53,914 nt of DNA from a virus (taxonomy: Duplodnaviria; Caudoviricetes): positions 1 through 53,914 of IMG/VR virus record IMGVR_UViG_3300009068_000052; one strand, given 5' to 3'. Positions 1,951 through 37,632 of this stretch are shown here, in pieces (positions within the stretch are counted from its first letter, which is position 1; each line of letters starts with the position of its first letter). The notes beneath the pieces were generated by a model that saw only the letters and a list, made by a program, of their open reading frames with translations, did not search any database and was not told the DNA's origin. A program made the translations under genes and the position numbers.

Positions 1951-4900
1951 TTAGCTCCTTGCCTTAGTGCGCTTGGTGTTCTTCAGGAAATCCAGCGGTG
2001 ACTTAATCTCGGGCGGCAAATCTTTGGGTTTTGCTGACCGCGCATGGGCACGAATGCCGTGCATCATGTCATATAGTTTATCCGACCCTGCTTTTGTGGA
2101 GCCGTTTCCAATTGCCGCTACCACATCGGCTGGAAATACAAACTCACCGTCCGCCAGCATGGCCGGGATGTCGTCCGACTGGCCGTCTCCAGCGCCTGTC
2201 ACAGCATCCCCGTCGCGGAAGTCCACTCGCATCTTGCCGCCATGCGCCATCAGGGGCACGCTCAAGCCGCCTTGGGCATACCGGCCATATCTTGTCCCGC
2301 CAATTGCTCCACCAGCGGCAGCAGTCTTTAGGTTAGTCCTCATAAATGGAGAGGAATTTTCTGAGGCGTACCCGTAGTCATCGTAAGGTAGTTCATTCTC
2401 CCCCGGCGACAAAATATCTTGAATGGGTCGGTCAAGGCCGTAGGTGTAAGAGTTCATGTTGTTTCCTTGCGGAGCTTGATTACTCAATGCGTTTTGAACG
2501 GCATTTGGGTCATTTGATTGCTGGAATTTAACGAATTTATCCAAAGCACTCTCAAATTTAGGTTGATTAACAAGTGTCGTTTGGAAGTCGGGCGACACAT
2601 TGCTTTTAGGGGTGGCCGACTCGCTGTAGTTGGCCGCAGCCAAAGAGCCAATGCCAAAGGCCGCATTCCCAAGAGCGTTAAGGGATGTGCTAGTTGGTTT
2701 CTTTACAGGGACAACAGGCTTTACAACGGGCGGCACCACAGGCGGCACCACGGGCGGAATTACTGGTGGAACCACAGGAGGAGTAACCGGCGGAGTAACC
2801 GGAGGAACCACGGGTGGCGTTACAGGCGGGGTGACTGTTGGGGTGACTGGCGGAGCCACAGGCTCTGGAACAGGCTCAGGGGTAGGCTCAGGGGTTGGTT
2901 CAGGAACAGGTTCAGGAACAACAATAGGGGTAGGAACAGGTTCAGGAGCGGGGATAGGCTCAAGAACAGGAATAGGTTCAGGAACGGGGACAGGGGCAGG
3001 CGGCGTTAATAATTCATTTTGCCTTTTTAGGCGTTCCGCTTCTGCCTCAGATTGATTCGGCATAGTGCTGTCATACAACTCGGTAACCGGAGCTTGCTCT
3101 ATTGGAATAGTGCCAACGCTAGGCTCAGGTACAGGAGGAGTAACAGGAATAGGCTCAGGAACGGGGACAGGCTCAGGAACAGGCTCAGGAGCGGGTGTAG
3201 GCACCGGCTCGGGAACAGGAGCGACTTCCGCTACTGGAGTGGAGACAACAGGGTTTGCTATTGCGTCCAATATTTCCTCAACCGTTTTCGGCAAAGGAGA
3301 AGGTTCAGGAGTGGGCGCAGGTTCAGGAACAGGTTCTGGAGTAGGTGCAGGCTCAGGAACGGGAGTAGGTTCAGGAATGGGTTGAAGAACGGGAGCAAGT
3401 TCAGGTGCAGGAACTGGCTGGGGGGCAACTTCAGGAATGGGAGAAGGTTCAGGAACAGGCTCGGTAACAACTTCCTCTACTGGAGGGGGTGTAACTGGAT
3501 TGGCTATCGCGTCCAATATTTCTTGAATTGTTGGCGACGCAGGAGTAGGTTCAGCAACAGGAGCGGTAACAGGCTCGGGGGCTGGCACAACAACAGTCGA
3601 GCCAACTGACGCATCAGGACTCACTTGCACAGTAGAAATATTTCCGTTTTCAGCTACAACAATGGCAGAACCGGTGTAGCGGTCTACTTGAATAATCGTT
3701 GCCTCCGTCTCCTTCGGAGGCTCTGGTACAGGCTCAGGAATGGGTTCAGGGATAGGCTCTGGCACAGGCGTTGGAGCAGGAACCGGCTCAAGGACGGGAG
3801 CGGGGGCGGGTAAAACTTCGGGAACAGAAATAGGTTCAGGAACAAGCTCAGGAGCAGGGATGGGTGCAGGCTCAGGAGCGGGAGCAGGGGCCGGTTCAGG
3901 AGTTGGTTCAGGGGCAGGCTCTGGAACAAACTCAGGAATAGGTTCAGGAACGGGAACAACTTCCTCCACTGGAGGAGGACTAATTGGATTTGCTATTGCG
4001 TCCAGAAATTCCTGTACTGTTGTCGGCGCAGGGGGAGATTCAGGAGTGGGTTCAGAAACAGGTTCAAGAACAGGTTCGGGAGCGGGTACTACAACGGTAG
4101 ACCCGACCGATGCGTCAGGGCTTACCTGTACAGTGGAGATGCTTCCATCTGGAGCGAGAACAAGAGCATCGCCAGTGTAACGATCCACTTGGATGATGGT
4201 TGCCTCTGTTTCTGCTGGGGGAGTCTCAGGTACAGGCGCAGGTGTTGGAAAAACAAGTGGCTCCGTTGGAGGAGTCTCAACTATGGGCGCAGGCTCTATA
4301 GGAGCAGGTGATGCCAATGATTGATTTAATCTTGCCAAGCGTTCTGTTTCTGCTTGTGATTGCTCTTGAGTAATGTCCAAACCGCCAACAGGGGCAGACT
4401 GAATGGGCGTTGTCTCAATTGGCGTGAGTGCGCTTGGCAGCTTGATGCCATAGTCTTTGAATATCTGCGCCATCTTTGCATCTTCATCAGGGTCACCAGC
4501 GTTGGGGCTGAATGTCGCTAATTGAGCGGCTAAAAAGGCGGGGTTTAATCTTGATGCAACTTCGGCAATGGTCAGTCCAAATTGACCAAGGCTCCGCTCT
4601 AGGGCAGGCAGCATTACCTTGTAGTTGGGGTCATTGGCTGCTTCTTTAACTAATTGAATCAATCTTTCTGGTTGCTGCAATAGCGCACTTGCCGACATTT
4701 CTGCAAGAGGCAACGCACCGGCAACTTGAACGCCGGGAGATTCCAAAATAATGTCGTCAATCCGAGATGACATTTGAGCAGTGGCCTCGTTATTAGCCTG
4801 CACCTGTGCATCAGCTACCGCTTGAGCGGCGGAGGCTGCTTGCGCTTCTGCTGCAAATATTGCTGCTTGAGCCTGCTCTGCCGCCGCTGCTGCCGCTCTG

Positions 4901-7155
4901 AATTCCGCTGCTGTTGTTGCTTGCGCTTCTGCTTCTGCCGCAGCTTGAGCTTGAGCTGCTGCCTCTGCCCGTGCATTCTCAGCCGCTTCTGCTTGCGCCT
5001 GCGCTGCTATTTGCGCTTGTTCGGCGTTTCTTGCATCCTCCGCCATTTTTGCTTCCGCTTGTTCTCTGGCCGCTTGCGCTCGTGAGGCTTCCTCTGCTGC
5101 TATTTGGGCATCTCGGGCGTCTCTAGCTGCTTGCTCTCTGGCTTCTTGTTCGCGGGCTGCTTGCTCCCTAGCGGATTGAGCAGCGTCAGCAGCAGCTTTT
5201 GCGTCCGCTGCCATTTTTGCGTCCGCCGCTTTTGCGGCATCTCTAGCCGCTTGCTCACGGTCAGCTTGAGCTTTTGCTTCACTAATTTTTTGGTTTGCAA
5301 AATTGCTGATGGCGTCGGTATTTGCTGCCCCATAAGCAGTGCCAGCAAATTGCTTGGCCTCTTCTTCAGAAACATCAAGACCAAAGTCACGCTTCAATCC
5401 AGCCTGAACGTCGGTGATTGACATCTCACGACCAGCGCCTTCATTGAATTTAACTTTAGAGCCATCCTGAGCCGTAAAGTTCATGTCCTTCTGTTCGACG
5501 CCAGCAGCGTCTGTGAAAACTTGTTTGCCGTCTTGAACAAACTTGCCTTGAGTGGTCAGCGACATGCCGTTGGAAAGCGCCCAATTGCCGTCAGCATCTT
5601 TGCCCGTGACCTTGAGTGCGCCAGAATTCAGGGCGTCAATAGTTGCATCGCGTGTGGCTACCGAAGCCAATGCCTTGGTGTAGTTCTCAGAAGAACGGTC
5701 AGCGGCCTCCTTGGTTCTAGACCAAGCGTCATATTTTGTTTGATAGGCTTCGGATGAGGCTTTTAAGTTGGCAGCAGTAGAGCCTCCAATGGAAGTGTCC
5801 TCAACGTCTCTCCTGATAGCGGCAAGACTGGCGATTTTTGAATCAACAGAATTTTTGGTGGCAGTCAAGCTATCAAGAGTTGGCTTGATGCTTTCGTACA
5901 GTTGGTTTGCTTGTTCGGAAATAGATTTTGAGTTTGCAGCAGCAGCATTTGCGGCATTGGCGGCTGCACGGGCGGCACCTTCAAATGATTCTTTTTCTGG
6001 AGGATTGAAGTCATATACAGGAAAAGTTCCTCCGTTCCTTCCGCCTCTGTCTTCATAGCCAATTAGCTTGCCCATGCGGGTGTCATCTCGGCCCATTCTG
6101 ATTTCGCTATATCCAAGTTGGCGCAACTTCTGGTCGTAATTTTCAGAAGCCCACTTGTTGTCCTCGTATATCGCCTTTTGCTGGTTGAACGTATTGACAG
6201 CGTTGTTGTTCTCAGCAGTTAACTGGTCGTATCGGGCTTTGAACGGGTTGTATTTTTCTTCAATGGTTTTTTGATAACTGGCGGATTCACTGTTGATTTC
6301 ATTGCGCAGGCTTTCGCCTTTTTTAAGCTGCGTGTCGTATTGGGCTTTATCTGCAAGGTACTTGTCCTGAGCAGACTTTGCTGCGTCAGTATTTGTTGTC
6401 AGCGCTTTGTAGGTCTCTTTGGCTTTATCCAAAAGAGCACTGCTTCCCATGTTGATGGTGGCGTAAGCAATGTAATTCCCAAGAGCTTGTGCAGGGTCTC
6501 CCTTGCCAGAAACAAGGGTGTTCAAAGCGGTGCTGGTTGCACCCTTCATCATGTTCAAAGCCTGCGGGCTAAAGCCCCAGTTCGGGTCTTTGTTAAGGGA
6601 GTTGAAGTAACTGTCAGTGGACGAGTAAACCAAGCCAGATGTAAAACCAGAACCAATGGCTTGGTCAATTGGCTTGCCTGTAAGCGCTGCACCAATACCG
6701 CCCACAAGAGCAGAGTTCATGCTTGTAGTGGCAATCTTTGCAATCTGCACAGCTTGGTCAACAGGCAGATTAAATTTCTCCATCATGGAGTCAGTGAAGT
6801 CGCCCGCCCACGCATTGCTGGTGTAGTTCTTGATGTCCATGCCAATTTGCGTGTTGGACATGAAAGACGTTGTTGCATACGACACGGCAGCAGACTTTGC
6901 TATGTCCTCAAGATTGCCGCCTCTTGCTCCGGTAATCACCGCAGCAGTCACATAAGGAGGGATACCCAAATAGGCACCACCAACCTGCACTAAGGTCGGC
7001 ACAGGGTCTTTGGCAATGGCTTCAAGGTTTTTACCAAGAGAATTTACCGTGCTTGTAACGGCGTTTCCAATGCTATTGAGCGCGTCACCGGCAATGTTTA
7101 TGACGCCGCCAATTATGTTTCCAATGCCACCAATAGCACCTGATACGGCTCCCAT
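1951..7155 (-). CDS. Large internal virion protein: hydrophobic N-terminus, coiled coils, Pro/Glu-rich repeats, C-terminal xAxGG...GDGQSDDIPAMLADGEFV module
   Basis: 1734-aa ORF with AGGAG RBS. The C-terminal motif resembles the 'GG...SDSIPA.LS.GEFV' module seen at the ends of tape-measure and ejection proteins. Confidence 0.7.
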   Translation of the reverse strand: MGAVSGAIGGIGNIIGGVINIAGDALNSIGNAVTSTVNSLGKNLEAIAKDPVPTLVQVGGAYLGIPPYVTAAVITGARGGNLEDIAKSAAVSYATTSFMSNTQIGMDIKNYTSNAWAGDFTDSMMEKFNLPVDQAVQIAKIATTSMNSALVGGIGAALTGKPIDQAIGSGFTSGLVYSSTDSYFNSLNKDPNWGFSPQALNMMKGATSTALNTLVSGKGDPAQALGNYIAYATINMGSSALLDKAKETYKALTTNTDAAKSAQDKYLADKAQYDTQLKKGESLRNEINSESASYQKTIEEKYNPFKARYDQLTAENNNAVNTFNQQKAIYEDNKWASENYDQKLRQLGYSEIRMGRDDTRMGKLIGYEDRGGRNGGTFPVYDFNPPEKESFEGAARAAANAANAAAANSKSISEQANQLYESIKPTLDSLTATKNSVDSKIASLAAIRRDVEDTSIGGSTAANLKASSEAYQTKYDAWSRTKEAADRSSENYTKALASVATRDATIDALNSGALKVTGKDADGNWALSNGMSLTTQGKFVQDGKQVFTDAAGVEQKDMNFTAQDGSKVKFNEGAGREMSITDVQAGLKRDFGLDVSEEEAKQFAGTAYGAANTDAISNFANQKISEAKAQADREQAARDAAKAADAKMAADAKAAADAAQSAREQAAREQEAREQAARDARDAQIAAEEASRAQAAREQAEAKMAEDARNAEQAQIAAQAQAEAAENARAEAAAQAQAAAEAEAQATTAAEFRAAAAAAEQAQAAIFAAEAQAASAAQAVADAQVQANNEATAQMSSRIDDIILESPGVQVAGALPLAEMSASALLQQPERLIQLVKEAANDPNYKVMLPALERSLGQFGLTIAEVASRLNPAFLAAQLATFSPNAGDPDEDAKMAQIFKDYGIKLPSALTPIETTPIQSAPVGGLDITQEQSQAETERLARLNQSLASPAPIEPAPIVETPPTEPLVFPTPAPVPETPPAETEATIIQVDRYTGDALVLAPDGSISTVQVSPDASVGSTVVVPAPEPVLEPVSEPTPESPPAPTTVQEFLDAIANPISPPPVEEVVPVPEPIPEFVPEPAPEPTPEPAPAPAPEPAPIPAPELVPEPISVPEVLPAPAPVLEPVPAPTPVPEPIPEPIPEPVPEPPKETEATIIQVDRYTGSAIVVAENGNISTVQVSPDASVGSTVVVPAPEPVTAPVAEPTPASPTIQEILDAIANPVTPPPVEEVVTEPVPEPSPIPEVAPQPVPAPELAPVLQPIPEPTPVPEPAPTPEPVPEPAPTPEPSPLPKTVEEILDAIANPVVSTPVAEVAPVPEPVPTPAPEPVPEPVPVPEPIPVTPPVPEPSVGTIPIEQAPVTELYDSTMPNQSEAEAERLKRQNELLTPPAPVPVPEPIPVLEPIPAPEPVPTPIVVPEPVPEPTPEPTPEPVPEPVAPPVTPTVTPPVTPPVVPPVTPPVTPPVVPPVIPPVVPPVVPPVVKPVVPVKKPTSTSLNALGNAAFGIGSLAAANYSESATPKSNVSPDFQTTLVNQPKFESALDKFVKFQQSNDPNAVQNALSNQAPQGNNMNSYTYGLDRPIQDILSPGENELPYDDYGYASENSSPFMRTNLKTAAAGGAIGGTRYGRYAQGGLSVPLMAHGGKMRVDFRDGDAVTGAGDGQSDDIPAMLADGEFVFPADVVAAIGNGSTKAGSDKLYDMMHGIRAHARSAKPKDLPPEIKSPLDFLKNTKRTKARS
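2690..4320 (-). repeat. Coding low-complexity repeats (PEP/PVP/VTPP) with duplicated modules
   Basis: Many (ggt/ggc)tcagga(ac) units. ETEATIIQVDRYTG...STVQVSPDASVGSTVVVPAPEPV occurs twice and (F/I)LDAIANP three times. Confidence 0.9.
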
Positions 7156-7157: not shown

Positions 7158-7643
7158 TTAGCTCCTCTTTTTGCCAGTAGACATGGCAAATAAACCGTTG
7201 GTGCTATTGAAATTTGTCTTGATGGCGGGGTCGTTTAGTTTTTTTGCGGCCATCTTCAAAACCCTGACAATCTCAGGTGTGTGCGTAATAGCAAAGAGAA
7301 CATCAAAGCCCATCTTGCGGGCCGACTGCATGAACTCAATCATGTTGTTGACCAAGTTGTCTGCGGTATCGCCGTTGTAGCTCCGCACCCAGCCAACCCG
7401 ACCCTCAAAGGCGGCGATGGTGAACAGCGTATTGCCCGCACGGATGCGAATCAAAGCCTTGTCGCTGTACTCTTTAATCATCATAGAGTAGAGCATTCTT
7501 TCAGTGGAAACGCGCCCTTTTTTTGCCGCCTTCTCAACAACTTTTTGGCTGTGCTTGTCTTCATGCGCGGCCACCGCAAAAATGTCGGTGGGGTTAAGCA
7601 TATGCTCCTTAGAGCTAACCGGGCGGATACTTGCAACGCTCAT
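7158..7643 (-). CDS. Hypothetical protein in the tail/ejection module
   Basis: 161 aa, ATGA-coupled to the upstream gene. A GNAT-like fold is possible but unverified. Confidence 0.65.
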   Translation of the reverse strand: MSVASIRPVSSKEHMLNPTDIFAVAAHEDKHSQKVVEKAAKKGRVSTERMLYSMMIKEYSDKALIRIRAGNTLFTIAAFEGRVGWVRSYNGDTADNLVNNMIEFMQSARKMGFDVLFAITHTPEIVRVLKMAAKKLNDPAIKTNFNSTNGLFAMSTGKKRS

Positions 7644-8326
7644 GCTGTAACCTCCAGATAGCGTCGGTCATCCACCTTGTTGGGATGGAAGTTAGGCAAA
7701 TAAATCTTGAGCATTGGCACAAATACCTTGACTGTCATGTGCCACACCCATTGGAAAAAGTCAGTCCAGTCCTTCAGCCGCCTGAAGCTGACGCCTCTGA
7801 GGGTGTAGCCCACAATAAATTTGATGACGTAGACCTGATTTTGCCTTGCAATTGCCCGCAGGTCAGCATCTGAGTAGCCCAAACTGCGCCAAAGGTCAAT
7901 GGCTAAGTCCTTGTGGCCAATTTCTTCACGGGCGTGCCAAGCAAAAAGTTTGTGTTCACGTCCCTTGCGGCCCTTGAACCAGTCAAGGTACATCCGACCC
8001 ATGCAGGCCGCAAAATGCTCAATAGAGACCATTGTGCCCAACCAAACCTTGTTGCCGGGGCGGCGGTGAATAATGCGGGTCTTCCGGTACTCACCGTTTG
8101 CAATCTCAGTGATTCTAGCCCGTGCGTTGTAGGCATCGTGAGCGCTGGCATGAGCCAACTCCTCACGCACAAACTGTTCAATTCTGACCCTTAGTGATTC
8201 ATCTTTGACCAGCGGCAAATGGTGCTTGGCTACAGCGACGAACGCACGCTCCCATGCCGGGAACAGGATGCTTACCGCATCACAGTGCCGGGTAAAGAGC
8301 TTTGAGTCATCGCACCAGTTTGTCAT
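7640..8326 (-). CDS. Predicted metal-dependent hydrolase, ferritin-like di-metal family
   Basis: Motifs S.LFP..ERAFV, REELAHASAH, SIEHF and WHAREEIGHKDLA.D match the bacterial 'metal-dependent hydrolase' (PF10118-type) pattern. Confidence 0.75.
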   Translation of the reverse strand: MTNWCDDSKLFTRHCDAVSILFPAWERAFVAVAKHHLPLVKDESLRVRIEQFVREELAHASAHDAYNARARITEIANGEYRKTRIIHRRPGNKVWLGTMVSIEHFAACMGRMYLDWFKGRKGREHKLFAWHAREEIGHKDLAIDLWRSLGYSDADLRAIARQNQVYVIKFIVGYTLRGVSFRRLKDWTDFFQWVWHMTVKVFVPMLKIYLPNFHPNKVDDRRYLEVTA

Positions 8327-13228: not shown

Positions 13229-13458
13229 GGCGTTGGCTCCTTGTCAGTCTCGCCGTGGGACAGTTTCACACCAGCCAACAAACCGATGAAGCCGCCCACA
13301 ATCGTTTGGAACGCAGGCGAGATAAGTTTGAAAATCTCGGCGTTGTCCACTTTTTCGTCAAACAAGCCTGCCATCAAAACTCCAACCATGCCAACGACAA
13401 CAATGCATAGGGTAAAGCTGACCATAAGGGTTACAAGAAACGTCAGTTTGGCTTTCAT
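13225..13458 (-). CDS. Small two-TM membrane protein in the lysis cassette
   Basis: 77 aa with two hydrophobic stretches, lying between the holin and the endolysin. Confidence 0.7.
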   Translation of the reverse strand: MKAKLTFLVTLMVSFTLCIVVVGMVGVLMAGLFDEKVDNAEIFKLISPAFQTIVGGFIGLLAGVKLSHGETDKEPTP

Positions 13459-14093: not shown

Positions 14094-14095
14094 TT

Positions 14096-23647: not shown

Positions 23648-24157
23648 TTACCAGCCGGGACAATTCCACCGCTGCATTGAAGCCCTTGAACGGCTTCCCT
23701 TATCGCTTTTCTCAGCTACTGGCTCCATCCGAGCGCAGAAAGAATCGCGTCTTGAACCGCCCTGTGGCTGGGGAGCCTTCAGGTTGGAACCAGTCTCACG
23801 ATTGTACTTCTCGCGGCCCTTTGCGGTCAGTCCTGCGCCTTGTTTGGCGGGCAGTTTTTCACCACGCCCAATAGCCAAGCTCGGGCCACCATTCTTCAGT
23901 TTGGCGGTTTTGGCTGACTCTCGGAAGGCTTCAGCCGTTGGCGCACCTTTGCTGCCCACTCGGCGCATTTTTTCGCCAGAGCCTTCAGCAATTCTTTCAC
24001 GTTTTGCAGCGATGTTGGCATACAAGCCACCTTCCTTCATGTTCTTGTCGGCCTTGACAAACTCTTTGCCGACCTTCTGCGGGACGCCACCAAACCCGCC
24101 CTTGGTGTGGGCCGCAGCCGCCATCAGGCGGTGCTGGGCAGCAGATTTGCTGGGCAT
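23648..24157 (-). CDS. Basic three-module protein with modules joined by MKEGG and LKNGG
   Basis: 169 aa: MPSKSAAQHRLM.. / GGLYANI.AKR.RI..GSGEKMR / GGPSL...GLTAKGR...RRDSFCARM...RWNC. Confidence 0.8.
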   Translation of the reverse strand: MPSKSAAQHRLMAAAAHTKGGFGGVPQKVGKEFVKADKNMKEGGLYANIAAKRERIAEGSGEKMRRVGSKGAPTAEAFRESAKTAKLKNGGPSLAIGRGEKLPAKQGAGLTAKGREKYNRETGSNLKAPQPQGGSRRDSFCARMEPVAEKSDKGSRSRASMQRWNCPGW

Positions 24158-24627: not shown

Positions 24628-25875
24628 TTAACAAACGCTTCCGCCGCGTTTCTTGCCGGGGGAGACAGTCACAGACTCCTTGGTCTTGGTGACGCTGCCT
24701 GCTGCATCGCGCTCCTTGTTAGTCACAGAGCCTTTAGAACCAAACGCACCACGCGCTTTGTTGTATAGCTCTTCCACCATGCTCAACGGGTTCAACGCCT
24801 CTTCAAGCTCACGGCTCTCCTTGTCAGTCACAGCCTTGGGGTCTTTGAGAACGTACTTGTCGTTGGGTGAACCACCTTCAGCCAGCTTCAGCTTGTTGGC
24901 CGGGCCGTACTTCAGGTTGCTATCCATCTTGGCTTGGCGCATCGCGGTAGCGTTTTCCATCTTGTTGACTGCCTGCAACTGGCGGTTACCCGGAGCGACT
25001 TTGCCGCCCTTTTTGTAGGTTCCAGCCAGTTGAGTGATTTCAACAGGAGAAGGGATAGGCTTGCGACCTTGCGGCATTGCCACGGCAGAACCAGCGCTGT
25101 TAACACTGCCCCCCGTGGCGAAGTGCTTTTTTGTTGCACCTCCGCGCTTGAAGCCACCAGCATTGCCGTAACTCACGCCACCAGTTTTGGCGGGAGAGTT
25201 GTCGTACTTGCCGGTGTCCACAATGGTCGTGGCAGGTGAACCAGAGATGCTTTCTGAAGGAATCATGCCGCCAGTTGCGTAGCCAGCTTGGCCCTTCACG
25301 ACGCCGCCAGTAGCCATCTTCTTCATGGCTCCGCCACGTTTGAAGCCGCCAGCGTTGCCGTTCTTCACGCCGCCAGTGGTAGCAGGCGAGTTGTCGGGCT
25401 TGGCTTGGTACATCTTGGTGGTTGCGTAGTCACCCGAAGAAGTCTCGCTCTGGATGGAGCCACCAGTGGCAAACTTCTTCATCTTGCCGCCTTTTTTCAA
25501 AGCCAGCTTGGTGCCCTTGCCGCCCTTATGCTCTTGCATGTCGTGCTGCTTGAAGGCTTTCTGAATCATGGCCTTGTCTTGGGCCTTGTCAGACTTACCG
25601 CCCTCTTTCATCATGCGGCTTGCTGCCAAGCCAACAGGAGCGGATGGGCCAGCACCCATCGAGCGCATAGCGCGGCGACGAGCGGCCAAGGAAGGAGCCA
25701 TAGGGGTAGCAGCCTTTGCCATGCCGCCACGGGCAGGCATAGCGCCCATAGGAGCAGGTGGCATAGCGCCCATCATGCCGCCATCGGCCTTCTTGACGCT
25801 GCCGCCTTTTTTGAGCTTCAGTTCGACTGAAGGCTCAGTGGTCATCATTTTGACCATTGGTTTGAATTGACCCAT
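24628..25875 (-). CDS. Lys/Met/Gly-rich protein with ~15 x[AK]xGG motifs
   Basis: Likely start MGQFKPMVK at 25875 (TAAGGAG RBS). Motifs include LKKGG, MKEGG, FATGG, FKRGG, MATGG, YATGG, YKKGG and LAEGG. Confidence 0.8.
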   Translation of the reverse strand: MGQFKPMVKMMTTEPSVELKLKKGGSVKKADGGMMGAMPPAPMGAMPARGGMAKAATPMAPSLAARRRAMRSMGAGPSAPVGLAASRMMKEGGKSDKAQDKAMIQKAFKQHDMQEHKGGKGTKLALKKGGKMKKFATGGSIQSETSSGDYATTKMYQAKPDNSPATTGGVKNGNAGGFKRGGAMKKMATGGVVKGQAGYATGGMIPSESISGSPATTIVDTGKYDNSPAKTGGVSYGNAGGFKRGGATKKHFATGGSVNSAGSAVAMPQGRKPIPSPVEITQLAGTYKKGGKVAPGNRQLQAVNKMENATAMRQAKMDSNLKYGPANKLKLAEGGSPNDKYVLKDPKAVTDKESRELEEALNPLSMVEELYNKARGAFGSKGSVTNKERDAAGSVTKTKESVTVSPGKKRGGSVC

Positions 25876-30554: not shown

Positions 30555-30706
30555 TTTTTCTTAGCTTGCGATAAGCCTCCTTGTGGTTTTGCGGGTTGGT
30601 TTTCGCCCTTGGTTTGCATGGACTGGCCCGTAATAGGCACGCCCATTGCCATGCGCTTGTGCTGGGGCACATTCACGCTCTTTTGCTCTGCATCACTGGT
30701 AGCCAT
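30551..30706 (-). CDS. Small basic hypothetical protein
   Basis: Likely start MATSDAEQKSVNVPQHKRMAMG at 30706 with AAGGAG RBS. Confidence 0.6.
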   Translation of the reverse strand: MATSDAEQKSVNVPQHKRMAMGVPITGQSMQTKGENQPAKPQGGLSQAKKK

Positions 30707-33230
30707 AAGGTACTCCTTGGGTTGGTTTAGGTACAGACTTGCTTTGCTCAAAGTTGAGCTTGGCCGCATCCCGTGTTAAGCGGGCTGTTTCGATGCGTTC
30801 TTTGGTCTCTTGGTCGCCCTTGGCGATGGCAAGGCGCAGTTGCAGTTCTTCCATGTCGATTTGCTGCTGCTGCTGTAGTTTGTCCATGTCCATCTTGATG
30901 CGGGCCTGAAGCTCCTGACCCTTGAGGCCCATCTCGGCTTGGTCGCGCTGGGTGCGGCGTTGGGTCTCGGCCATGCTGGTGTCGAGCAGGACTTTGGTCT
31001 CTGCCGACATCTGTGGCTGCGGCTGGAACTGCTGCAACTGCTGCTGCATCTGCTGGATGGCGGGCATGACCTTTTGCAAAGCCTCGTCGCTGTCCATGCG
31101 AACGTGCTGGGACACGGCAGAGAACAGCTTGTCGAGCTTGGCTGGGTTCTTGACCATGTCGTAGTCTTGGGTCTTGTTGTCCATCGACATATCCACATAG
31201 CCGTTCATGCGGTTCAAGTACCACAAGACCAAGTGCTGTTTGATGTGTTCCATCGCACGCGGCAGGTAGGTCTGCGCAATTGCGGGGTTGCCGCCCAGCA
31301 CTGGGTTGTTGGCAAAGTCCAGAATGACTTGAATGTGGGAAAGGTGGTCTTGTTCGATGTAGGCGTAGGCCGCTTGACCCAAAGCCATTGCCACGTTCTC
31401 GTTGGCAGCGTCCAGCTTGGTGGGAGAAGGTACATCGACCATGAGTTCGTTGACACCGGGCACCTTTATCTGCTTCAAAAAGCGCTCCAGCACGACTTTT
31501 TGGTTGAACTGGGCGGGATACTTCTCCATCAGCGACATCACGGCCTGCGTTTGGGCCATGCGCTGAGTTTCAGAGAAGATGTGCGGGTCGGAGACGGGTA
31601 TCACGTCCGTGATGCGGGCAAAATCCTCTTTGGTGATGTCCAAGTCTTCCACAACCTCGCCACGGCGCATGTCATCCAAGTACCAGCGGTTGATTCGACT
31701 TAAAACACGCAGCACACGGCCCTGAGACTCGTGCAAACGGGCGTGGATGGCCGAGAAAACAACTGCGCCCTGCTCAATCAACGCCTGAGTGGTGCCAACA
31801 GGGGTGTTTGAGTTGAGGTCAGCAATTTTTTCCTCTGCCGTAGTCACCACACCCTTGGCGGCGTTGGTCAGAAAGCCCAAAAGCTCAAACAGAACGGGCG
31901 ATGGCGGGTTAAATGGCATGGGCATAGCCAGCTTGCGGACATCGTCCACCCCCGGCGCACCCTCAATCTCCACCACTTGGGTGACTTCGACCTCTTGGGA
32001 CTGCCCAGAAATCTTGCCGCCCTTGAGCTTCAGGAGCGTCGCAGCGTTGTTGATGTGGGCAGAGTCCAGCAAGGCCCGCAAAGCGCCTGTGAGGGCCGCA
32101 GAAAGCCCGCCAATTAGCTGTGGCAGGCCAACAGCGAGTGCGCCACGCCACGGAATGAACTTGAACTCGACAATCCAGTCGAGCTTGGTCATTGTTTCGT
32201 CGCCTTCTTCCCAGTTCCGGTACAGGCCGATGACCTCGCTGGACAGGTCGTCAATCATCAGAATGTACGGAGCGGCCTCACCCTTGGAAATACCGTCCTC
32301 TTCCAGTTCCAACGTGGTGTAGATGTGATAGACGGTGCGCATCCCGTCTTCGTTGTCGTTCTCGGACTTGCCCTCAATCTTGTTGGTGGCCTTTTGCGAG
32401 AGCGAAATCTCCGGGTTCATGGTTGCCCGGATGTAGCTGGTGTCGCGGTACAGGCCAGAAGCCACGCGGCTCTTGTACTTTGCTTCCGAGATGATGTCCA
32501 CCTCGGTCACGCGCTCGGCGTTGTAGAAGTTGCTGGCCGAGTACGGCAGGATGACGTTGTCTACAGGTAGAAATTCAGCACATGGTCGCTTCTTCTTCTC
32601 GTCGTACCAGAGCTTCATGTACTGACTGCCGCCCAGTGGTAGCTGAGTCAGCATCTGCTCCTGCTCGTCGCGGAACTCTTCAATCTGCTCGGTCAATTGC
32701 CAGTTCATAAAGTCGCGCTTGCGCTCGGCAATCTCAACCTTGTCGTCGTCCACATCACCCAAAATCTTGGTGCGGGTTGGGCCGTCAGGCGGGAACATCT
32801 CTTTGATGGCGCGGGATGCGAAGTCGATACAGGCTTCGGCCATGACAGGATGCACCACCTTGCTTGCGCCGTTGAAGTTGGCTCCGCCGGGGGCGTCCTT
32901 GCCCATGCCGGTGCGCTTGATGCCCTCTTCGTACTGCTTGTCGCGCTCCTTGCGGGCTTCCTTGTCCTTCTCGACCAGTTCGATGTATTTCAGCGGGAGC
33001 TTGTCGAGGTCATATGGGTCGAACGAGTCGGCCAAGTTCTGGTAGAAATCCTCGTCCTCCATTGGGCCTTTGTCGCCAGTGTGGACAATGACCGAGCCGT
33101 CTGGCAACTCTTCGATGGTCGAGTCATCCAACTCAGGCATCTCTACCTCTACGCCTTCACTTTCCGCGTCAGGCGGCTCACCGCCGATGAAGCGCTGGAA
33201 CTCTGGGTCAATTGGGAACTGTGTTGCCAT
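30693..33230 (-). CDS. Portal protein
   Basis: 845 aa with 'F.GAS.V.HP..AEA...F..RA..E.FP..GP', 'LPL.GS...K...D' and 'PVGTT.AL.EQG..V.SAIH.RLH', ending in a Gln-rich coiled-coil barrel (P22-like). Confidence 0.88.
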   Translation of the reverse strand: MATQFPIDPEFQRFIGGEPPDAESEGVEVEMPELDDSTIEELPDGSVIVHTGDKGPMEDEDFYQNLADSFDPYDLDKLPLKYIELVEKDKEARKERDKQYEEGIKRTGMGKDAPGGANFNGASKVVHPVMAEACIDFASRAIKEMFPPDGPTRTKILGDVDDDKVEIAERKRDFMNWQLTEQIEEFRDEQEQMLTQLPLGGSQYMKLWYDEKKKRPCAEFLPVDNVILPYSASNFYNAERVTEVDIISEAKYKSRVASGLYRDTSYIRATMNPEISLSQKATNKIEGKSENDNEDGMRTVYHIYTTLELEEDGISKGEAAPYILMIDDLSSEVIGLYRNWEEGDETMTKLDWIVEFKFIPWRGALAVGLPQLIGGLSAALTGALRALLDSAHINNAATLLKLKGGKISGQSQEVEVTQVVEIEGAPGVDDVRKLAMPMPFNPPSPVLFELLGFLTNAAKGVVTTAEEKIADLNSNTPVGTTQALIEQGAVVFSAIHARLHESQGRVLRVLSRINRWYLDDMRRGEVVEDLDITKEDFARITDVIPVSDPHIFSETQRMAQTQAVMSLMEKYPAQFNQKVVLERFLKQIKVPGVNELMVDVPSPTKLDAANENVAMALGQAAYAYIEQDHLSHIQVILDFANNPVLGGNPAIAQTYLPRAMEHIKQHLVLWYLNRMNGYVDMSMDNKTQDYDMVKNPAKLDKLFSAVSQHVRMDSDEALQKVMPAIQQMQQQLQQFQPQPQMSAETKVLLDTSMAETQRRTQRDQAEMGLKGQELQARIKMDMDKLQQQQQIDMEELQLRLAIAKGDQETKERIETARLTRDAAKLNFEQSKSVPKPTQGVPYGYQ

Positions 33231-36200
33231 GTCGTTTTACCTTTTTGGGTTTGCAGTGGGCGAGGCCACCAGCCATTTTTACTTCGCCGCCTTCTTTGCG
33301 CTGGAGGCCCGTCTGTCTGACATCAGGCATTCCTTCTTTGCGGTACCACGGCAATAAATCTCCTTCGCCTGTGCTTATCTGCCGCAGCACTTCAGCGCGG
33401 ACATTTGCAGGGTTGGGCTGAATTCCTTTTTTGTTGAGAGTGTACGCAACCTGCTTCTCCAGCAAATCAAGGGCATCACCCCGTGGTGAACGCAACCCCG
33501 TCAACTCTCCGCCACCAAACCAGCGGCCAGCCTGCGCCATACCGCCGGGGATGCCAAGGTCTTGCGCAATTCCCAGCAAGCCTTGCTCACCTGCGTTGTA
33601 CTCGGTGTTGCCAAAGCCGCCTGCTTCTTTGAAGTAGGGGTGAAACCGACTGCCTTGCGTTTGCCCTGCGGCCTCATGGACATCCAGCACCACGGACTTG
33701 GCAAAGTCACCCGCCTTCTGGGTGCCGTAGGTTGGAATCTTGTAGTTGGTTGGAATGTTGGCCTTGCTCATCTCGCGCAAGTTTTGCCCGCCTTCAAGGA
33801 CGTTTTGCACACCTTGCCGATGAACTGGCATCAACGGCACGCCAATGCCAAACTTCTCCTGAAACTCAACCATCTGCCGCTCAACGTTTTCCTCTGTCAA
33901 CGGGATGCCACGGGCATTCATGTCGCGCATCAACTGTCCCACTGACATTTCGTTCATGATGGAGTTGCGTGCAGATGCCGGGGCAAGCGAGTGAATCCAT
34001 TGCTCAAACTTCTCCGCAGGCATCCCTGCTTCCATCACTGCTTGCTTCACCGGGTAGAGCGAAGCATAGAACGTCTCGCCACCCAACGGCAGGCCACGCT
34101 TGATTTGTCTCTCAATCAAGGAACGGTTTTCTGGGTCGTTGTACAACTCTTCCACATGAGAGATGTTGGCGCGGGGTGGGATGTCTCGTGGGAATGCTGT
34201 TTGTTCAACGCCGGGAAACCCTTCTAATGCGTCCTTGATGGACGAGCGGTCAAATGCCTGCAACTCAGGAGGCGGCGGATTCCACGGCTCGGTGGGGATG
34301 GACAGAAACTCGTTAGCTTTGCGCTTGCGCTCCGCCACCACCTCTGGTGTGTTCTGCAATTTTTTGGGCTTGCTGTCTGCGTAAGACGATTTCACCAATG
34401 CCCCGTACACTTTTTGCAATTCTGGTTTTTGAGTTCGCTCCCAATCCAGCTTACTCTTAGCTTGCTTTGTGGCTTTGCTCATCACCTCTGCATCACTCAG
34501 CTTTGGGTTGGCTGCGGCAATATTGTCGGCAAACTTGGCTGCTGTTGAGTCCAGTATTTTTTGGCTGTATGGAGCAACGTCTTTAGATTTTTTTGCAGCC
34601 TTTGCAGCCTTCTGCGCCTTGAGTGCTGCGCCACCAATGCCCATGTGCGGCTCTTCTGCAATCATGTCCAGCAGGCGTTGCTTGGCATCGGATACCGAGC
34701 CACCTGCGGCCATGCGAATTTCGCCACCTTTTTTGCGGCGCTGCACCGGGGTCTTGTTAAACATGATTGCCATCGGCTTGGACGCCTTGGGGTTTGCCAT
34801 GCCCTCGTAGCCATACTCACGGACGAGGCGCTCAATGTCGTTGGCGTCCTGCGCGGGGTAGGCGATGCCTTGGTTGTACTTGGCGGTGTAGGGCGTGCGG
34901 TTGGACTCGCGGGCCAGCACGTTGAAGTTCAACGGGTCTTGCGTGATGTCGTACAGGTTTGACGACTCACCACGGTAGCGGTTGACGCCAAGCCCCGGCT
35001 CCGGAAGGACTGTTCCGGGTTCGCCCATGTAGAAGTAAGAGCGGTCACGCACCGCGCCGGGGTAGTTTATCAGGCGCTCGGCCTCGGCACCCTTGATGCC
35101 CGTGCCGTACTTCCGGGGGTCAGTAAAAGTCAGACCCGGCTCGTTGCTGAAGTGAGTTAGGGGCGATTGAATAGAAGTTCCCGGCATTGGCTTGTTTGCG
35201 GCAGCAAGGTAGTCAGGAATGCCTCCAGCAAACTGGGGATTCATAAACTCAGGTGGCAGTAGCACGGCTTTGTTGGGAGCAAACTCCAACCCGGAATACG
35301 CTTGGCGCTTTAGCTCCGCAATTTTATTTACAAGGGCTTTATCACCGCGCCTGCTGGCCTCGTTTCCTAAGCGCTCGTACTCCGATATGGTTTGCTTGAG
35401 CTTGGCGTTCAGCGGGCTGTAGTTCACCACCGAATTTTGCCCACGGGTCTCAGCCGTCATAGCCATCCGCGCAAGTGGAGAGTACATCTGCTGGTGAACA
35501 GCCCATGCCATCTCTTCGCCCTTGGGGCCAAACTCGTTGCCGTAAATGGCGTGACCCAAAAGATCATGGACGGCCCGGAACTTTTCGTTCTCATTTAGGC
35601 CGCTTTGCGGATCGACGTTGTGCAAGAAGTCGTGTTTGTCGCCACCTTGATAAACGTACAAGTGCTTGTTTCCATGCACATCAGAGGCCATGTCCTTGGC
35701 CCCGTTGTAGTTGCCCTCACCAGCGCGGTGGTACGAGAAGTTGTACGGCAGTCTCTTGAATTGATCGTCAGTCTCCTTTGCCATCTGACGGTAAGCCTTC
35801 TCCATCAGGTCGTCGTAGTTCTTTGCGCCAATCCTCTCCATCAACTCAGGCATTTCCCGGCCATAAGCCCCAAAGATTGCAGACTTGTATTCGGGCGATC
35901 CTTGGACGGCTAAATCAAAAGTGCGGGCAATGCCCGACTGTTTTGCCAACGAGCTACTGGGAACCTGCGGAACTCCAAAATCTGCCCCTTGAGTGTCTCG
36001 CGTGTACTTCCTTGCAATGTTAAGCGGCTCGTTCGCAACTGGGTCAGCAATTATTCGACCCACCTCTTCTGACGATAGGAATTTCGGAACTTCGCGTCCA
36101 GCTTGTTCTGCTCCTCCTCCGTCAAGGGCGGAGCCTCGTAGCCCATCAGTTTCTTTAATTCCGCGAGTTGTTGCCTTGCTCGTGTCAAGTGCTGTTGGGC

Positions 36201-37632
36201 TGACTCGGAAGAACGGGCCTTCTTGTTTTGTTGCATAAGTAGCTCCTGTTTCTAAGGGTGTAATTTTGCTTGGGGTTAAAGCCTGTGTTGTTTTCTTTGC
36301 AGCACCAGCAGCCGCACTGCCAGCCTTAGCTCCCGCTTTGACTGCGCCATACCCTAGAGCAGCCACGCTTGCGGCGTCTAGCATGTCAAACGCATCAGGC
36401 ATCTGGCCGTAGCCAATGTCCTCGGCCACCTTGCTCAGGCCGGGTGTGCCCACAAGGTCGGACATTTTTATTGCCTCCAGTACGTCCTTGGTTGGCACGG
36501 TGGTCGTGGAGATGCCGGGTTTCTTGTACTGCATCGGCTGGCCGTACTCATAGTCCTCGGCAGGCACGTTCGAGCCAAAAGTGATGTCAGTCGGGATGGA
36601 GATGTTGGACGACTCCATCCGCTTGCGCATATCAGGGCCGACAAAGGGGACTGCACCGACTAGATTACCGACTAGGTTGGACAGCGACGGGCCTTTGTCA
36701 ATCAACTGGGTCGCGTAGTCAGCGCCGCTCTTGATTGCGCCAGCAATGGGGTTGATTTGGCGGGCACGCATCTCCGCTTCTTTCTTGGGCTGCTCGTAGC
36801 GCTCCCACGGGTACTTCGGGGTGCGACCACCACCAGCCATGTGGACAGCGCCACCACTAGCCTTGGTGATGTCAGGGTCGTTTAGGTCGTAGGTGCCACG
36901 GTTGCCGATGGCGGACTTGATTTGCGTAGCGTTGAAGGGCGCGTAAACCTCCGAGCCGTTCTCAATAGCAATTACGCCATCATGACCTAGTCGCTTCATC
37001 GCGTCGGTTGCCACTGTGGACTTTACAAGGTCAAACCCCCTTGGCATATGCTCACGTTCGTAGCCAGAGGCTTTGTATTTGATGGCCTTGGGGATGTCTT
37101 CAAGTAACTCCTCAACACCAACGCCCAAAGCCTTTGCCACAGCCGTGGCCTCATCCATATTCAGTTCGCCAGATAGGTTTTTAATAAGGCCGGTTGCGTA
37201 GAAAGGATTTTCAATTGACAAATGCACGGGCATGATGTTCACGCCTTGTGGAACATTGGGGTCTTCTTCCCAAGGTCTATGCTGGGTTTTCCAATACCTA
37301 AACTTCTGAGACGCAAAGTCGTTTGCAAACTCCGGGTCGTTTGTCATCCACCCGGCAATGTTGGTGCTGTTCTCTGTTTTTGGGTCTTCTTTTGGGTCAA
37401 ACCGTTTGACATTCTGATTTGTTGCGTGATACGCCCTGTTCTTGACCTTGCTGCCTTCCAGCATCTTGGCTAGGTTGGCTTCACGCTCTGCTGCCGGGAG
37501 GATGGCTTTGGCTCCGGTCTCTGCCGCCTTGGCTACCTTCTGAGCTTTGCCGATGGCCTTCAGCAATCCACCCCCGGCCATGTGAGGTTCGTCGGCAATC
37601 ATCTGTAGCAGGCGTGCTTTGGCGTCAGTCAT
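33208..37632 (-). CDS. Large polyvalent (multidomain) protein, putative head cargo
   Basis: 1474 aa. ART-like 'YHAT...F...QIKSAIGNRGTYD..DPDI' domain, 'FRAVHDLLGH...GEE...ETRGQNS' domain, 'THFS...DP..YGTG' domain and a glycosylase-like C-terminal domain. The main modules are separated by xxxGG linkers. Confidence 0.75.
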   Translation of the reverse strand: MTDAKARLLQMIADEPHMAGGGLLKAIGKAQKVAKAAETGAKAILPAAEREANLAKMLEGSKVKNRAYHATNQNVKRFDPKEDPKTENSTNIAGWMTNDPEFANDFASQKFRYWKTQHRPWEEDPNVPQGVNIMPVHLSIENPFYATGLIKNLSGELNMDEATAVAKALGVGVEELLEDIPKAIKYKASGYEREHMPRGFDLVKSTVATDAMKRLGHDGVIAIENGSEVYAPFNATQIKSAIGNRGTYDLNDPDITKASGGAVHMAGGGRTPKYPWERYEQPKKEAEMRARQINPIAGAIKSGADYATQLIDKGPSLSNLVGNLVGAVPFVGPDMRKRMESSNISIPTDITFGSNVPAEDYEYGQPMQYKKPGISTTTVPTKDVLEAIKMSDLVGTPGLSKVAEDIGYGQMPDAFDMLDAASVAALGYGAVKAGAKAGSAAAGAAKKTTQALTPSKITPLETGATYATKQEGPFFRVSPTALDTSKATTRGIKETDGLRGSALDGGGAEQAGREVPKFLSSEEVGRIIADPVANEPLNIARKYTRDTQGADFGVPQVPSSSLAKQSGIARTFDLAVQGSPEYKSAIFGAYGREMPELMERIGAKNYDDLMEKAYRQMAKETDDQFKRLPYNFSYHRAGEGNYNGAKDMASDVHGNKHLYVYQGGDKHDFLHNVDPQSGLNENEKFRAVHDLLGHAIYGNEFGPKGEEMAWAVHQQMYSPLARMAMTAETRGQNSVVNYSPLNAKLKQTISEYERLGNEASRRGDKALVNKIAELKRQAYSGLEFAPNKAVLLPPEFMNPQFAGGIPDYLAAANKPMPGTSIQSPLTHFSNEPGLTFTDPRKYGTGIKGAEAERLINYPGAVRDRSYFYMGEPGTVLPEPGLGVNRYRGESSNLYDITQDPLNFNVLARESNRTPYTAKYNQGIAYPAQDANDIERLVREYGYEGMANPKASKPMAIMFNKTPVQRRKKGGEIRMAAGGSVSDAKQRLLDMIAEEPHMGIGGAALKAQKAAKAAKKSKDVAPYSQKILDSTAAKFADNIAAANPKLSDAEVMSKATKQAKSKLDWERTQKPELQKVYGALVKSSYADSKPKKLQNTPEVVAERKRKANEFLSIPTEPWNPPPPELQAFDRSSIKDALEGFPGVEQTAFPRDIPPRANISHVEELYNDPENRSLIERQIKRGLPLGGETFYASLYPVKQAVMEAGMPAEKFEQWIHSLAPASARNSIMNEMSVGQLMRDMNARGIPLTEENVERQMVEFQEKFGIGVPLMPVHRQGVQNVLEGGQNLREMSKANIPTNYKIPTYGTQKAGDFAKSVVLDVHEAAGQTQGSRFHPYFKEAGGFGNTEYNAGEQGLLGIAQDLGIPGGMAQAGRWFGGGELTGLRSPRGDALDLLEKQVAYTLNKKGIQPNPANVRAEVLRQISTGEGDLLPWYRKEGMPDVRQTGLQRKEGGEVKMAGGLAHCKPKKVKRHGNTVPN

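Follow-up and report, generated by a model that had tools for sequence, protein, structure and literature searches.

A five-residue double-glycine motif, h-[A/K]-x-G-G, recurs in the late proteins of a tailed virus (Duplodnaviria; Caudoviricetes) whose DNA is held as IMG/VR record IMGVR_UViG_3300009068_000052; the whole stretch analysed, 53,914 nucleotides, is referred to below as the window. We find that this motif, in which h stands for Met, Phe, Tyr or Leu and sometimes for Arg or Lys, and which is usually followed by Val or Ile two residues past the Gly-Gly pair, is a protein-level junction element of one set of proteins in this apparent podovirus lineage. It marks the points at which modules are joined or at which a short leader or tail is attached, and it is missing from genes that encode the modules on their own. 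The four window proteins that carry it are probably virion-internal, and their sequences point to an undescribed processing or linker code.

Four late proteins carry nearly all copies of the motif

We counted a strict form of the motif, [MFYL][AK]xGG, together with a looser form that allows Arg, Lys or Ala at the first position, and compared each protein with 5000 composition-preserving shuffles of itself. The 29 late proteins hold 19 strict motifs against 2.85 expected (standard deviation 1.66), and none of the 5000 shuffles reached 19. All except one of the 19 fall in four proteins encoded on the minus strand: 11 in a 415-amino-acid (415-aa) Lys/Gly-rich protein (24628-25875, with an alternative start 17 codons upstream at 25926; 0.33 expected, 0/5000 shuffles reaching 11), three in a 1474-aa polyvalent protein with an ART domain (33208-37632; 0.41 expected, P = 0.008), two in a 169-aa fusion of three small basic modules (23648-24157; 0.08 expected, P = 0.002) and two in a 1734-aa protein that its sequence features mark as ejection- or tape-measure-like (1951-7155; 0.11 expected, P = 0.006). 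The remaining one, LAAGG, belongs to a fibre-like protein of 1726 aa that is rich in Gly, where a single instance is in keeping with chance (1 against 0.53 expected). The strict motif was found neither in the portal, the major capsid protein (MCP), TerL or TerS nor in 18 further early or other open reading frames (ORFs), and phage T7, used as an outside control, has 1 against 1.37 expected in 17 proteins.

An earlier note on this DNA, written from the sequence alone, had described the motif as genome-wide, which its confinement to four proteins does not bear out. After translation of every gene that the note named, all the motif instances it listed proved to be present where it had put them, and its remark that portal, MCP and terminase lack the motif holds (0 each). 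Its count of about 15 in the 415-aa protein was slightly too high, the 11 strict sites and three looser ones (KADGG, AKTGG and KKRGG) making 14. Elsewhere the looser form occurs three times in the 1474-aa protein (KASGG, RKKGG, RKEGG) and once in the 1734-aa protein (AAAGG).

The motif stands at module joints of the 169-aa family

The 169-aa protein consists of module A (phrog_16759; residues 1-39, PHROG match 1-41), module B (phrog_16028; residues 40-88, PHROG match 41-88) and module C (DUF6321, PF19846; residues 89-169, Pfam match 108-163, 53.7 bits against a gathering score of 28.5). Its two strict motifs, MKEGG at residue 40 (24026..24040, minus strand) and LKNGG at residue 87 (23885..23899, minus strand), match the A/B and B/C limits drawn by PHROGs and Pfam, in good agreement with the earlier note, which had placed them exactly between the modules. 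The same modules exist as separate genes of 50-85 residues in T7-like cyanophages, a pelagiphage and phage DSL-LC05, where they sit between scaffold and capsid genes or between terminase and portal genes. A free module B begins MAKKGLY... or MSKPGLY..., without Gly-Gly.

From 81 related loci (80 kept IMG/VR loci plus the metagenomic phage MW202545) we collected 108 homologous ORFs, amounting to 96 distinct proteins that combine modules A-E in 14 architectures (ABC 22, C 22, AB 14, AC 9, AD 8, EC 7, B 4, AEB 3, BC 2 and five singletons). The strict motif stands at 93 of the 98 joints in these proteins, which are of eight types, and some Gly-Gly stands at 96. By type, the strict motif occupies 37/37 A/B, 24/26 B/C, 9/9 A/C, 8/8 A/D, 7/7 E/C, 6/6 E/B and 1/1 B/D joints, as well as 1/4 A/E joints. 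It is found at 0 of 22 free module-C N-termini, which start M[SAKT]KK.... Among the 22 proteins that end after module B, 15 finish in AK[VP][KT] without Gly-Gly, and the other seven carry hKxGG followed by a tail of 6-7 residues ending [CS]W. Comparison of free and fused ends thus shows that the h-K part belongs to the upstream module and that x-G-G is added only when something follows.

In longer homologues (120 listed of 277, scored with Ile, Val and Trp also allowed at h), modules B and C are also fused to ART-PolyVal+SLT giants, to an SU10-type adaptor and to other domains. The motif lies no more than 30 residues upstream of 56 of the 68 internal B modules and of 19 of the 44 internal C modules. 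Another multi-motif family embeds module B, and there a conserved HKxCxCKACGG cysteine cluster, which from its sequence may be a metal site, precedes the motif.

A basic protein, predicted to be disordered, with 11 strict sites

The 11 strict motifs of the 415-aa protein, all on the minus strand, are LKKGG at residue 21 (25801..25815), MKEGG at 89 (25597..25611), LKKGG at 126 (25486..25500), FATGG at 135 (25459..25473), FKRGG at 178 (25330..25344), MATGG at 187 (25303..25317), YATGG at 199 (25267..25281), FKRGG at 242 (25138..25152), FATGG at 252 (25108..25122), YKKGG at 287 (25003..25017) and LAEGG at 331 (24871..24885). The looser KKRGG at residue 408 (24640..24654, minus strand) precedes a conserved C-terminal xxC. 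In an alignment of 35 family members picked for spread (45% mean column identity), Gly-Gly is invariant in eight of the 11 strict motifs, among them those at residues 21, 89, 199, 242, 252, 287 and 331. Insertions and deletions in the alignment add or remove whole motif-bearing units, and conservation is highest at the two ends, over the first 25 residues and the last ~20, the latter ending GGxxC. Cys is the last residue in 34 of the 35 aligned members, and motif-bearing small proteins likewise share a basic C-terminus ending in Cys and/or Trp (GGSVC, RWNCPGW, RWKC, xxKKxCW, KNKSSSKW).

The family is large: more than 4512 proteins matched at E<=0.001 among 8000 candidates scored, all of them from metagenomes, and none of the 120 listed has a Pfam domain or an informative name. 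These 120 top matches carry 7 to 14 strict motifs each (mean 11.0). Pooled over them, the h position is Tyr (0.33), Met (0.23), Leu (0.22) or Phe (0.22), the second position Lys (0.59) or Ala (0.41) and the third mostly Lys or Thr, and Gly-Gly is followed by any residue and then by Val, Ile or Ala. With a pI of 10.15 and 69 Lys+Arg to 30 Asp+Glu, the window protein is basic, and it contains a tandem duplication of ~64 residues (135-198 against 199-262). AlphaFold2, run with the 35-member alignment, predicts it to be almost fully disordered, with a few helices (mean pLDDT 42.4, pTM 0.16).

Leaders, joints and tails of the 1474-aa polyvalent protein

The 1474-aa protein falls into two units. Unit A (residues 1-980) comprises a leader, an ART-PolyVal domain (PF18760; residues 67-247, E=7.6e-12, 46.6 bits against a cut-off of 31.2), the double motif KASGG-AVH-MAGGG and ~700 residues without assigned function; unit B (982-1474) has at its start a second copy of the N-terminal leader. 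The leader pattern, DAKxRLLxMIAxEPHMxGG, occurs at residues 4-22 and 983-1002, each time with a stretch rich in Lys and Ala behind it, which gives the impression of a fusion of two genes that each had a leader. That motifs flank the main modules of this protein, as the earlier note had said, is borne out at all six sites, which are encoded on the minus strand: MAGGG at residue 18 ends the N-terminal leader (37567..37581); KASGG at 257 and MAGGG at 265 form the double motif behind the ART domain (residues 257-269; 36826..36864); RKKGG at 966 and MAAGG at 974, separated by EIR, form a second one at the joint of units A and B (residues 966-978; 34699..34737); and RKEGG at 1445 follows the core of unit B (33286..33300) and is itself followed by EVKMAGG and a portable 18-residue tail, LAHCKPKKVKRHGNTVPN. 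A search of the ESM Atlas with residues 270-980 gave only unnamed clusters (best score 0.83) and no lead.

Unit B is found in 91 homologous proteins of 278-861 residues, either alone (459-503 aa) or fused to different partners (up to 861 aa). Its core ends ...MPDYR, and mostly [KR][KA]xGG stands a few residues on, leading into a tail of 10-20 residues or into further domains; many distant homologues end within a few residues of PDYR, without the motif. Free-standing units begin with leaders of 20-40 residues that end in MAGGG, FATGG or FKKGG. Among 29 loci with a portal ORF, 23 have an ORF that ends at the start of the portal gene, five have the portal at the contig edge, and in the remaining one (L070) the nearest long ORF ends ~200 nt short of it. 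The 23 portal-adjoining ORFs differ among themselves; xKxGG with a tail behind it forms the end of most, and judged by eye the tails are mostly of three kinds, GGLAQxKKxKKVxRHGNTVSN, KKRxGGL[ST]AMxR and GGKVxxTTNRDTMFMELSNKKLKRK, and a few fit none. Peptides of 10-30 residues recur after the motif on unrelated proteins. Those found at C-termini include GGKVxxTxNxDxMxxELxxKKxK, GGxxxDDLIIEERPL and GGL[ST]AMxR, and a further post-motif peptide, GGxVxYNTxPDMxDGGxIIQGxxF, resembles the D-I-P-A-x-L-x-x-G-E-F-V element of tape-measure-like proteins.

Block boundaries were drawn by all-against-all BLASTP, with at least three supporting subjects, on 194 distinct proteins of at least 400 aa together with that of the window (exact duplicates and anything shorter had been dropped); 188 proteins gave 690 internal boundaries. 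A strict motif lies within 15 residues of 147 of these against 54.2 at random (standard deviation 6.7, maximum 73 of 1000) and a looser one near 232 against 91.2, counts that come from related proteins and are not independent events. Two of the checks that the earlier note had proposed, a composition-shuffled null and a comparison with domain junctions in homologues, therefore both come out on the side of a junction element (19 against 2.85; 93/98 joints in the 169-aa family and 147/690 block boundaries against a null of 54).

The motif is selected as protein and avoids shell and tail classes

At least 566 IMG/VR contigs are relatives, this number having been confirmed among the first 600 pattern matches. 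In the 81 loci we labelled plus-strand ORFs of at least 50 aa (those containing X being dropped) by BLASTP against the window proteins and compared motif counts with composition expectations. The four classes named above are rich in the motif: 881 observed against 30.7 expected in the 415-aa class, 114 against 6.0 in the 169-aa class (108 ORFs), 10 against 1.2 in the 1474-aa class and 4 against 0.2 in the 1734-aa class. Counts are at or below expectation for the portal (1 against 2.1), MCP (0 against 2.5), 325-aa (0 against 5.7), 353-aa adaptor (0 against 2.4) and 592-aa fibre (4 against 12.0) classes. Unlabelled ORFs, spurious frames included, hold 66 against 21 expected; by eye these are mostly large proteins just before the portal gene, small proteins ending hKKGG...GGKINLGxCxVST...W, and chance matches in Gly-rich fibres. 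The scaffold-like 310-aa class also exceeds expectation (8 against 0.5), and we considered this protein as a member of the system; it was set aside, the motif being MAxGG in one subclade only (8/37 homologues strict) and missing from the window copy.

The codons of 995 motif instances indicate the level at which selection acts. The two motif glycines use GGC at 0.53 and 0.52 against 0.49 for other glycines and GGT at 0.37 and 0.32 against 0.35, and none of the 16 synonymous codon pairs for Gly-Gly is missing; a bias is seen in the motif Lys alone (AAA 0.70 against 0.45). Because the glycines of the motif are encoded as glycines are elsewhere in these genes, selection acts at the protein level.

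A parallel in the tape-measure proteins of lambda and T5

The 1734-aa protein is laid out as a Gly-zipper N-terminus, an Ala/Glu/Gln coiled coil, Pro-rich repeats and a C-terminal cluster of motifs, after which comes DIPAMLADGEFVFP. The cluster, AAAGG at residue 1612, YAQGG at 1626 and MAHGG at 1636 (residues 1612-1640; 2236..2322, minus strand), confirms the three terminal motifs of the earlier note, and GEFVFP follows at ~1660. At residues ~960-1200 there is a tandem duplication, ETEATIIQVDRYTG...STVQVSPDASVGSTVVVPAPEP occurring twice, within several hundred residues of the PEP/PVP proline-rich repeats. The last 255 residues (1480-1734) match no Pfam family even at E<=5, and so no tape-measure C-terminal model.

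The order of elements, h-A-x-G-G and then GE-x-V near the C-terminus, is the same in the tape measures of lambda and T5, proteins that leave the particle before the DNA does. In lambda gpH, 853 residues long, FATGG stands at 733 and YATGG at 778 (2 against 0.23 expected, P=0.02), in line with the earlier note, and GEFVF follows; T5 pb2 has AEGG at 1128, its only Gly-Gly in the last 700 residues, followed by GEHGTEVV. According to the accessible portions of two papers (PMC12617516; bioRxiv 10.1101/2022.09.20.507954), pb2 is cut into pb2* and pb2C. The available part of the preprint reports that the cut site was mapped by mass spectrometry, with 43 C-terminal residues of pb2* starting at T1085 (bioRxiv 10.1101/2022.09.20.507954), and that of the other paper gives pb2C as 92 residues (PMC12617516). 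We computed from these numbers that the cut falls between NSFVPR and AEGGMMYPG of the 1219-residue pb2, that is, directly before AEGG, with Arg at the position of h. For lambda, the same 2025 paper, as far as its accessible text goes, states that gpH loses ~14 kDa from its glycine-rich C-terminal region, that the fragment stays in the virion and that site and catalyst are both unknown (PMC12617516). By our calculation a fragment starting at residue 734 would have 12.5 kDa and one starting at 716, in the Gly run of residues 709-721, would have 14.2 kDa, so that the lambda site appears compatible with the motif without being pinned to it. The parallel has its limits: the 1734-aa protein has no detectable homology to these tape measures, the window phage is a podovirus without a tail tube, and in the window the motif is also present in head-module proteins, with many copies per protein.

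Genome organisation and relatives

The record is complete (53,914 bases; CheckV completeness 100%), with 123-bp direct terminal repeats at 1-123 and 53792-53914, and one large minus-strand gene spans its ends (an ORF at 1-738 that continues at 52379-53914). From the gene across the ends and the terminal repeat it follows that the window is the whole genome. The late genes lie on the minus strand. A gene immediately upstream of those for the terminase (40877-41368) encodes a protein of 163 aa that contains the C-terminal domain of the RNA polymerase alpha subunit (PF03118, E=2.5e-13). Family scans identified an Sf6-type TerS (39660-40268) and TerL (38246-39667), after which a 154-aa ORF separates TerL from the 1474-aa gene; the latter ends 23 nt inside the gene for the portal (phrog_1216, PHROG assignment; 30693-33230). 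Directly after the portal gene comes a GroES-like co-chaperonin gene (Cpn10, phrog_3188; 29945-30388), which is kept in relatives and adjoins small basic modules in phage DSL-LC05. It is followed by genes for a charged, scaffold-like 310-aa protein, for a 182-aa and a 190-aa protein and for the MCP (Phage_capsid_4/Mu gpT-like, family scans; 26943-27857). When the 182-aa protein, the MCP and the portal were searched by sequence against the PDB, no useful match emerged.

After the MCP gene come a Thr/Ala/Gly/Val-rich 325-aa protein (25886-26863), the 415-aa protein, a 145-aa protein, the 169-aa fusion, an adaptor-like 353-aa protein, fibre-like proteins and then a holin and a GH108 lysin, all on the minus strand. 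Further on, again on the minus strand, lie an SU10-type adaptor (12030-12665) with further tail proteins next to it, and the 1734-aa gene, after which come three more large proteins, one of them with a glucosaminidase/SLT domain. Beside the 1734-aa gene the late operon encodes a PF10118 'predicted metal-dependent hydrolase' (7640-8326, E=6.5e-37); tblastn found this gene neither in MW202545 nor in Caulobacter phage RW, and it therefore does not track the motif. The SU10 adaptor, together with the lack of tail-tube and tape-measure families, points to a podovirus.

The nearest record is the metagenomic phage MW202545 (MCP 90% identical), and the nearest isolates in the phage collection are Caulobacter phages GB2A, RW, RLK and KcrB (MCP 79% identical); roseophage CRP-901/902 and pelagiphage HTVC023P are more distant (MCP ~40% identical). 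Phage RW has the head module in common with the window and lacks the 415-aa, 325-aa, 169-aa and 1474-aa genes. Even with Ile, Val and Trp also allowed at h, its genome shows the pattern as isolated singles in four ORFs, two of them short, and no motif-rich protein. The 325-aa gene accompanies the 415-aa gene (64 labelled ORFs in the 81 loci, MW202545 included) and both are missing from RW. They have the look of a cassette of two genes that was inserted behind the capsid gene. At the corresponding site RW has gp085c (12706-14211), an unrelated, Cys-rich 501-aa protein that its record calls hypothetical and that, judged by eye and without a family search, looked like a homing-endonuclease-type insertion.

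A processing signal as the leading explanation

The earlier note read the motif as a shared protease site and/or packaging tag. Enrichment, the tracking of junctions, confinement to plausibly virion-internal or ejected proteins and use between unrelated modules speak for that reading; a protease of the C39, Ulp1-like (C48), S78, S49, S77 or M23 type was not found in the complete genome, the control for S77 being silent. Our own favoured explanation, to which we give a probability of about 40%, is that the motif is a site-specific processing signal. On this view cargo polyproteins would be the precursors. As the head assembles or afterwards they would be cleaved in the motif or beside it, which would release the modules and remove the amphipathic leaders from the N-termini and the tails from the C-termini. 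The enzyme could be a host protease, a phage protein that escaped recognition or the precursor itself. A 1973 paper on T5 reportedly named host involvement in the cut of a tail protein in its title, so that, speculatively, a host enzyme is conceivable. As in T5, cutting may occur between h and [A/K] instead of behind the Gly-Gly pair; were the T5 position valid here, the products would be nearer to the lengths of the split genes than those of a cut after Gly-Gly.

Several features are in line with cutting. The motif acts as if it replaced 'stop plus start' within one reading frame, and its use to delimit short leaders and tails on otherwise free-standing cargo units would fit a processing site. 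The capsid-targeting leaders of T4 show the same layout, and a disordered, basic protein with 11 sites resembles the core or scaffold proteins of T4 and adenovirus that are chopped at maturation. The cut of the T5 tape measure beside AxGG, and probably that of lambda, provides a direct precedent.

A number of results weigh against processing. Scans with Pfam, PHROGs and NCBIfam of essentially all ORFs of at least 100 aa revealed no protease family, and six-frame searches of the complete genome for S78, S49, C39, S77, C48 and M23 found none; the S77 control stayed silent in every genome, so that this search says little for S77. The conserved 182-aa protein of the head module, folded with 19 sequences (pLDDT 62.8), has no Foldseek match in the PDB at E<=0.001, and no protease candidate was seen among the genes that the window and MW202545 have in common and that the motif-free phage RW lacks. 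Distances between motifs can be as short as 8-12 residues, and cutting at every site would give very small peptides. A fused module, moreover, does not need this joint: 25 of the 44 internal C modules in the longer homologues are attached by an acidic ...EEEGP-SLSVGRGEKL link without the motif. We take these proteins to be a separate lineage, several of them carrying PF18905 and some lying on contigs of 120-250 kb; the link makes the motif a dialect of one lineage and not a structural requirement of the modules. Finally, the sequences counted are related, so that the counts overstate the number of independent events, and the case for processing is a sequence-based one.

A wider version of the proposal is that tailed phages share a processing code in which h-[A/K]-x-G-G marks cuts in internal or ejected proteins, with no need for a dedicated phage protease (a host enzyme or self-cleavage sufficing), and that the present lineage expanded this code into cargo polyproteins made of mini-modules and address peptides. 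It predicts that lambda gpH is cut at or next to FATGG 733-737, and we consider it rather unlikely.

Alternative explanations

It is possible, if somewhat doubtful, that nothing is cut at all and that the motif is a hinge, ending a helix and providing a flexible Gly-Gly turn between folding mini-modules, so that the chains stay whole like beads on a string and perhaps thread more easily through the portal and tail channel. With Ala or Lys ahead of Gly-Gly and a hydrophobic residue on either side, the motif may resemble helix C-capping patterns, the fusion-only part is just x-G-G, with h-K belonging to the upstream module (AKVK when free), and both the failure to find a protease in the genome and the different linker used for module C by another lineage are what an uncut joint would lead one to expect. 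The retention of the C-terminal fragment in the lambda virion, described in the accessible part of PMC12617516, also agrees with it. A generic linker should vary, however, and 93 of 98 joints of eight types keep the same five-residue pattern; conservation is just as strong in the 415-aa protein, for which hardly any folded module is predicted, and the motif precedes tails of 6-20 residues that are too short to be domains. We regard it as unlikely that the motif, with the peptide behind it, is a docking or packaging tag bound by a receptor of the procapsid (portal, scaffold or inner capsid surface), the 415-aa protein then being a multivalent adaptor. Such a tag would account for the restriction of the motif to probable internal proteins to the exclusion of shell and tail proteins, for its many copies in a disordered basic protein and for the portable C-terminal tails that follow it on unrelated upstream domains. 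Modules encoded on their own nevertheless lack it (0/22 free C; 15/22 proteins ending after B), so that a tag cannot be what packages each module, and docking gives no reason for placement exactly at the joints of two tiny modules. Prediction of a complex between the portal (alignment of 19) and the last 75 residues of the 1474-aa protein scored 0.00, which speaks neither for nor against binding.

Two further explanations fare much worse. Boundary sequences have been proposed for lambdoid mosaicism, and here, too, modules are shuffled in many orders around a joint that is always the same, so that conserved nucleotides at module borders might drive the shuffling and leave the peptide as a by-product. 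Background usage of the Gly codons, with all 16 pairs present among the 995 instances and a bias in the Lys codon only, largely refutes this DNA-level origin, as does the free variation of x and of the h residue, and we hold it to be very unlikely. An artefact of Lys/Gly richness and of the duplication of one repeat unit is hardly credible: although the ~64-residue duplication means that some of the 11 sites of the 415-aa protein are not independent, shuffling yields 0.33 for that protein and never 11, the motif also joins non-repetitive, unrelated modules, T7 stays near expectation and the Gly-rich fibre proteins are at or below it (4 against 12 in the 592-aa class). Two other ideas were dropped. 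Internal translation starts behind a Met at h do not agree with Tyr, Phe and Leu making up 77% of that position, and in 2A-like ribosome skipping at GG-P the Pro turned out to be part of module C and to be missing from several joints.

Comparison with known systems

In its sequence and gene context the 1474-aa protein fits the polyvalent proteins, a class that the available part of its description (Iyer et al. 2017, PMC5512222) presents as large and multidomain, with ART-PolyVal among its domains, encoded beside portal and terminase genes, presumed to be packaged and injected, and subject to extensive domain shuffling. The window protein has a domain typical of the class (PF18760) and two or more unrelated domains in variable architectures (91 unit B homologues; 23 portal-adjoining ORFs), and its gene lies among the late genes, between those for TerL and the portal. 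Zincin-like MPTase domains have been proposed, in the same accessible text, as the processing enzymes that release domains of polyvalent proteins (PMC5512222); none was detected in this phage. The words 'glycine' and 'linker' are absent from the main text of that paper, and the junction motif is thus not described there (PMC5512222). Open-access literature on Gly-Gly sites in phage virion proteins, HTVC023P, ART-PolyVal and peptide strings yielded no description of the motif, and no open-access paper containing 'DUF6321' was found. What appears to be new here is polyvalent or cargo proteins with a fixed inter-module joint.

With C39, prohead-protease and clan CE systems the motif shares only its layout. 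The internal proteins of T4 carry an N-terminal leader that the prohead protease gp21 removes at (L/I)xE; like the window set, they combine a short amphipathic leader and a fixed short motif on unrelated internal proteins with a core- or scaffold-like protein that has many sites. The T4 motif is (L/I)xE, however, and its protease gene lies in the head cluster, whereas the window has Gly-Gly and no prohead protease gene (S77, S78/U35 or S49) was found in it, with the S77 control silent. African swine fever virus and adenovirus cut polyproteins at Gly-Gly-X sites, and coronavirus papain-like proteases cut at LxGG. Core precursors in the Gly-Gly-X systems are cut at Gly-Gly sites with a hydrophobic residue a few positions upstream, as might happen here; their enzyme, in contrast, is a virus-encoded cysteine protease, the viruses belong to a different realm, and the hydrophobic residue is at P4 and not, as it would be in the window if the cut followed Gly-Gly, at P5. 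A clan CE protease was not found in the genome with the Ulp1-like model PF02902; the adenain model PF00770 was not searched. C39 leaders have 15-30 residues, a Gly-Gly end and hydrophobic residues at -4, -7 and -12. A Gly-Gly pair there ends a short N-terminal leader, whereas the window sites are mostly internal or C-terminal, 15 of the 18 strict ones lying more than 30 residues from the N-terminus and having their hydrophobic residue at -5, one position farther from Gly-Gly than in the C39, adenain and papain-like-protease consensus. No C39 peptidase (PF03412) was found at E<=0.1 in six frames of the complete genome, a search for which the control was positive in 7/14 genomes.

Implications

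Cargo and ejection proteins deliver enzymes and counter-defence factors into cells, and little is understood, except in T4, P1 and the giant phages, of how their unrelated modules are put together, packaged and set free. The lineage described here is common in metagenomes, with more than 4512 multi-motif homologues and at least 566 IMG/VR contigs, and no cultured member carrying these genes is found among the records examined. A fixed five-residue joint that predicts module limits gives an annotation rule for thousands of unannotated proteins, and it is a handle for the engineering of cargo fusions. If the motif is a cut site, it would further offer a route to the enzyme and the site of tape-measure maturation. 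The motif also gives a testable connection to a problem that has stood for decades, namely the place and the manner in which lambda gpH is cleaved.

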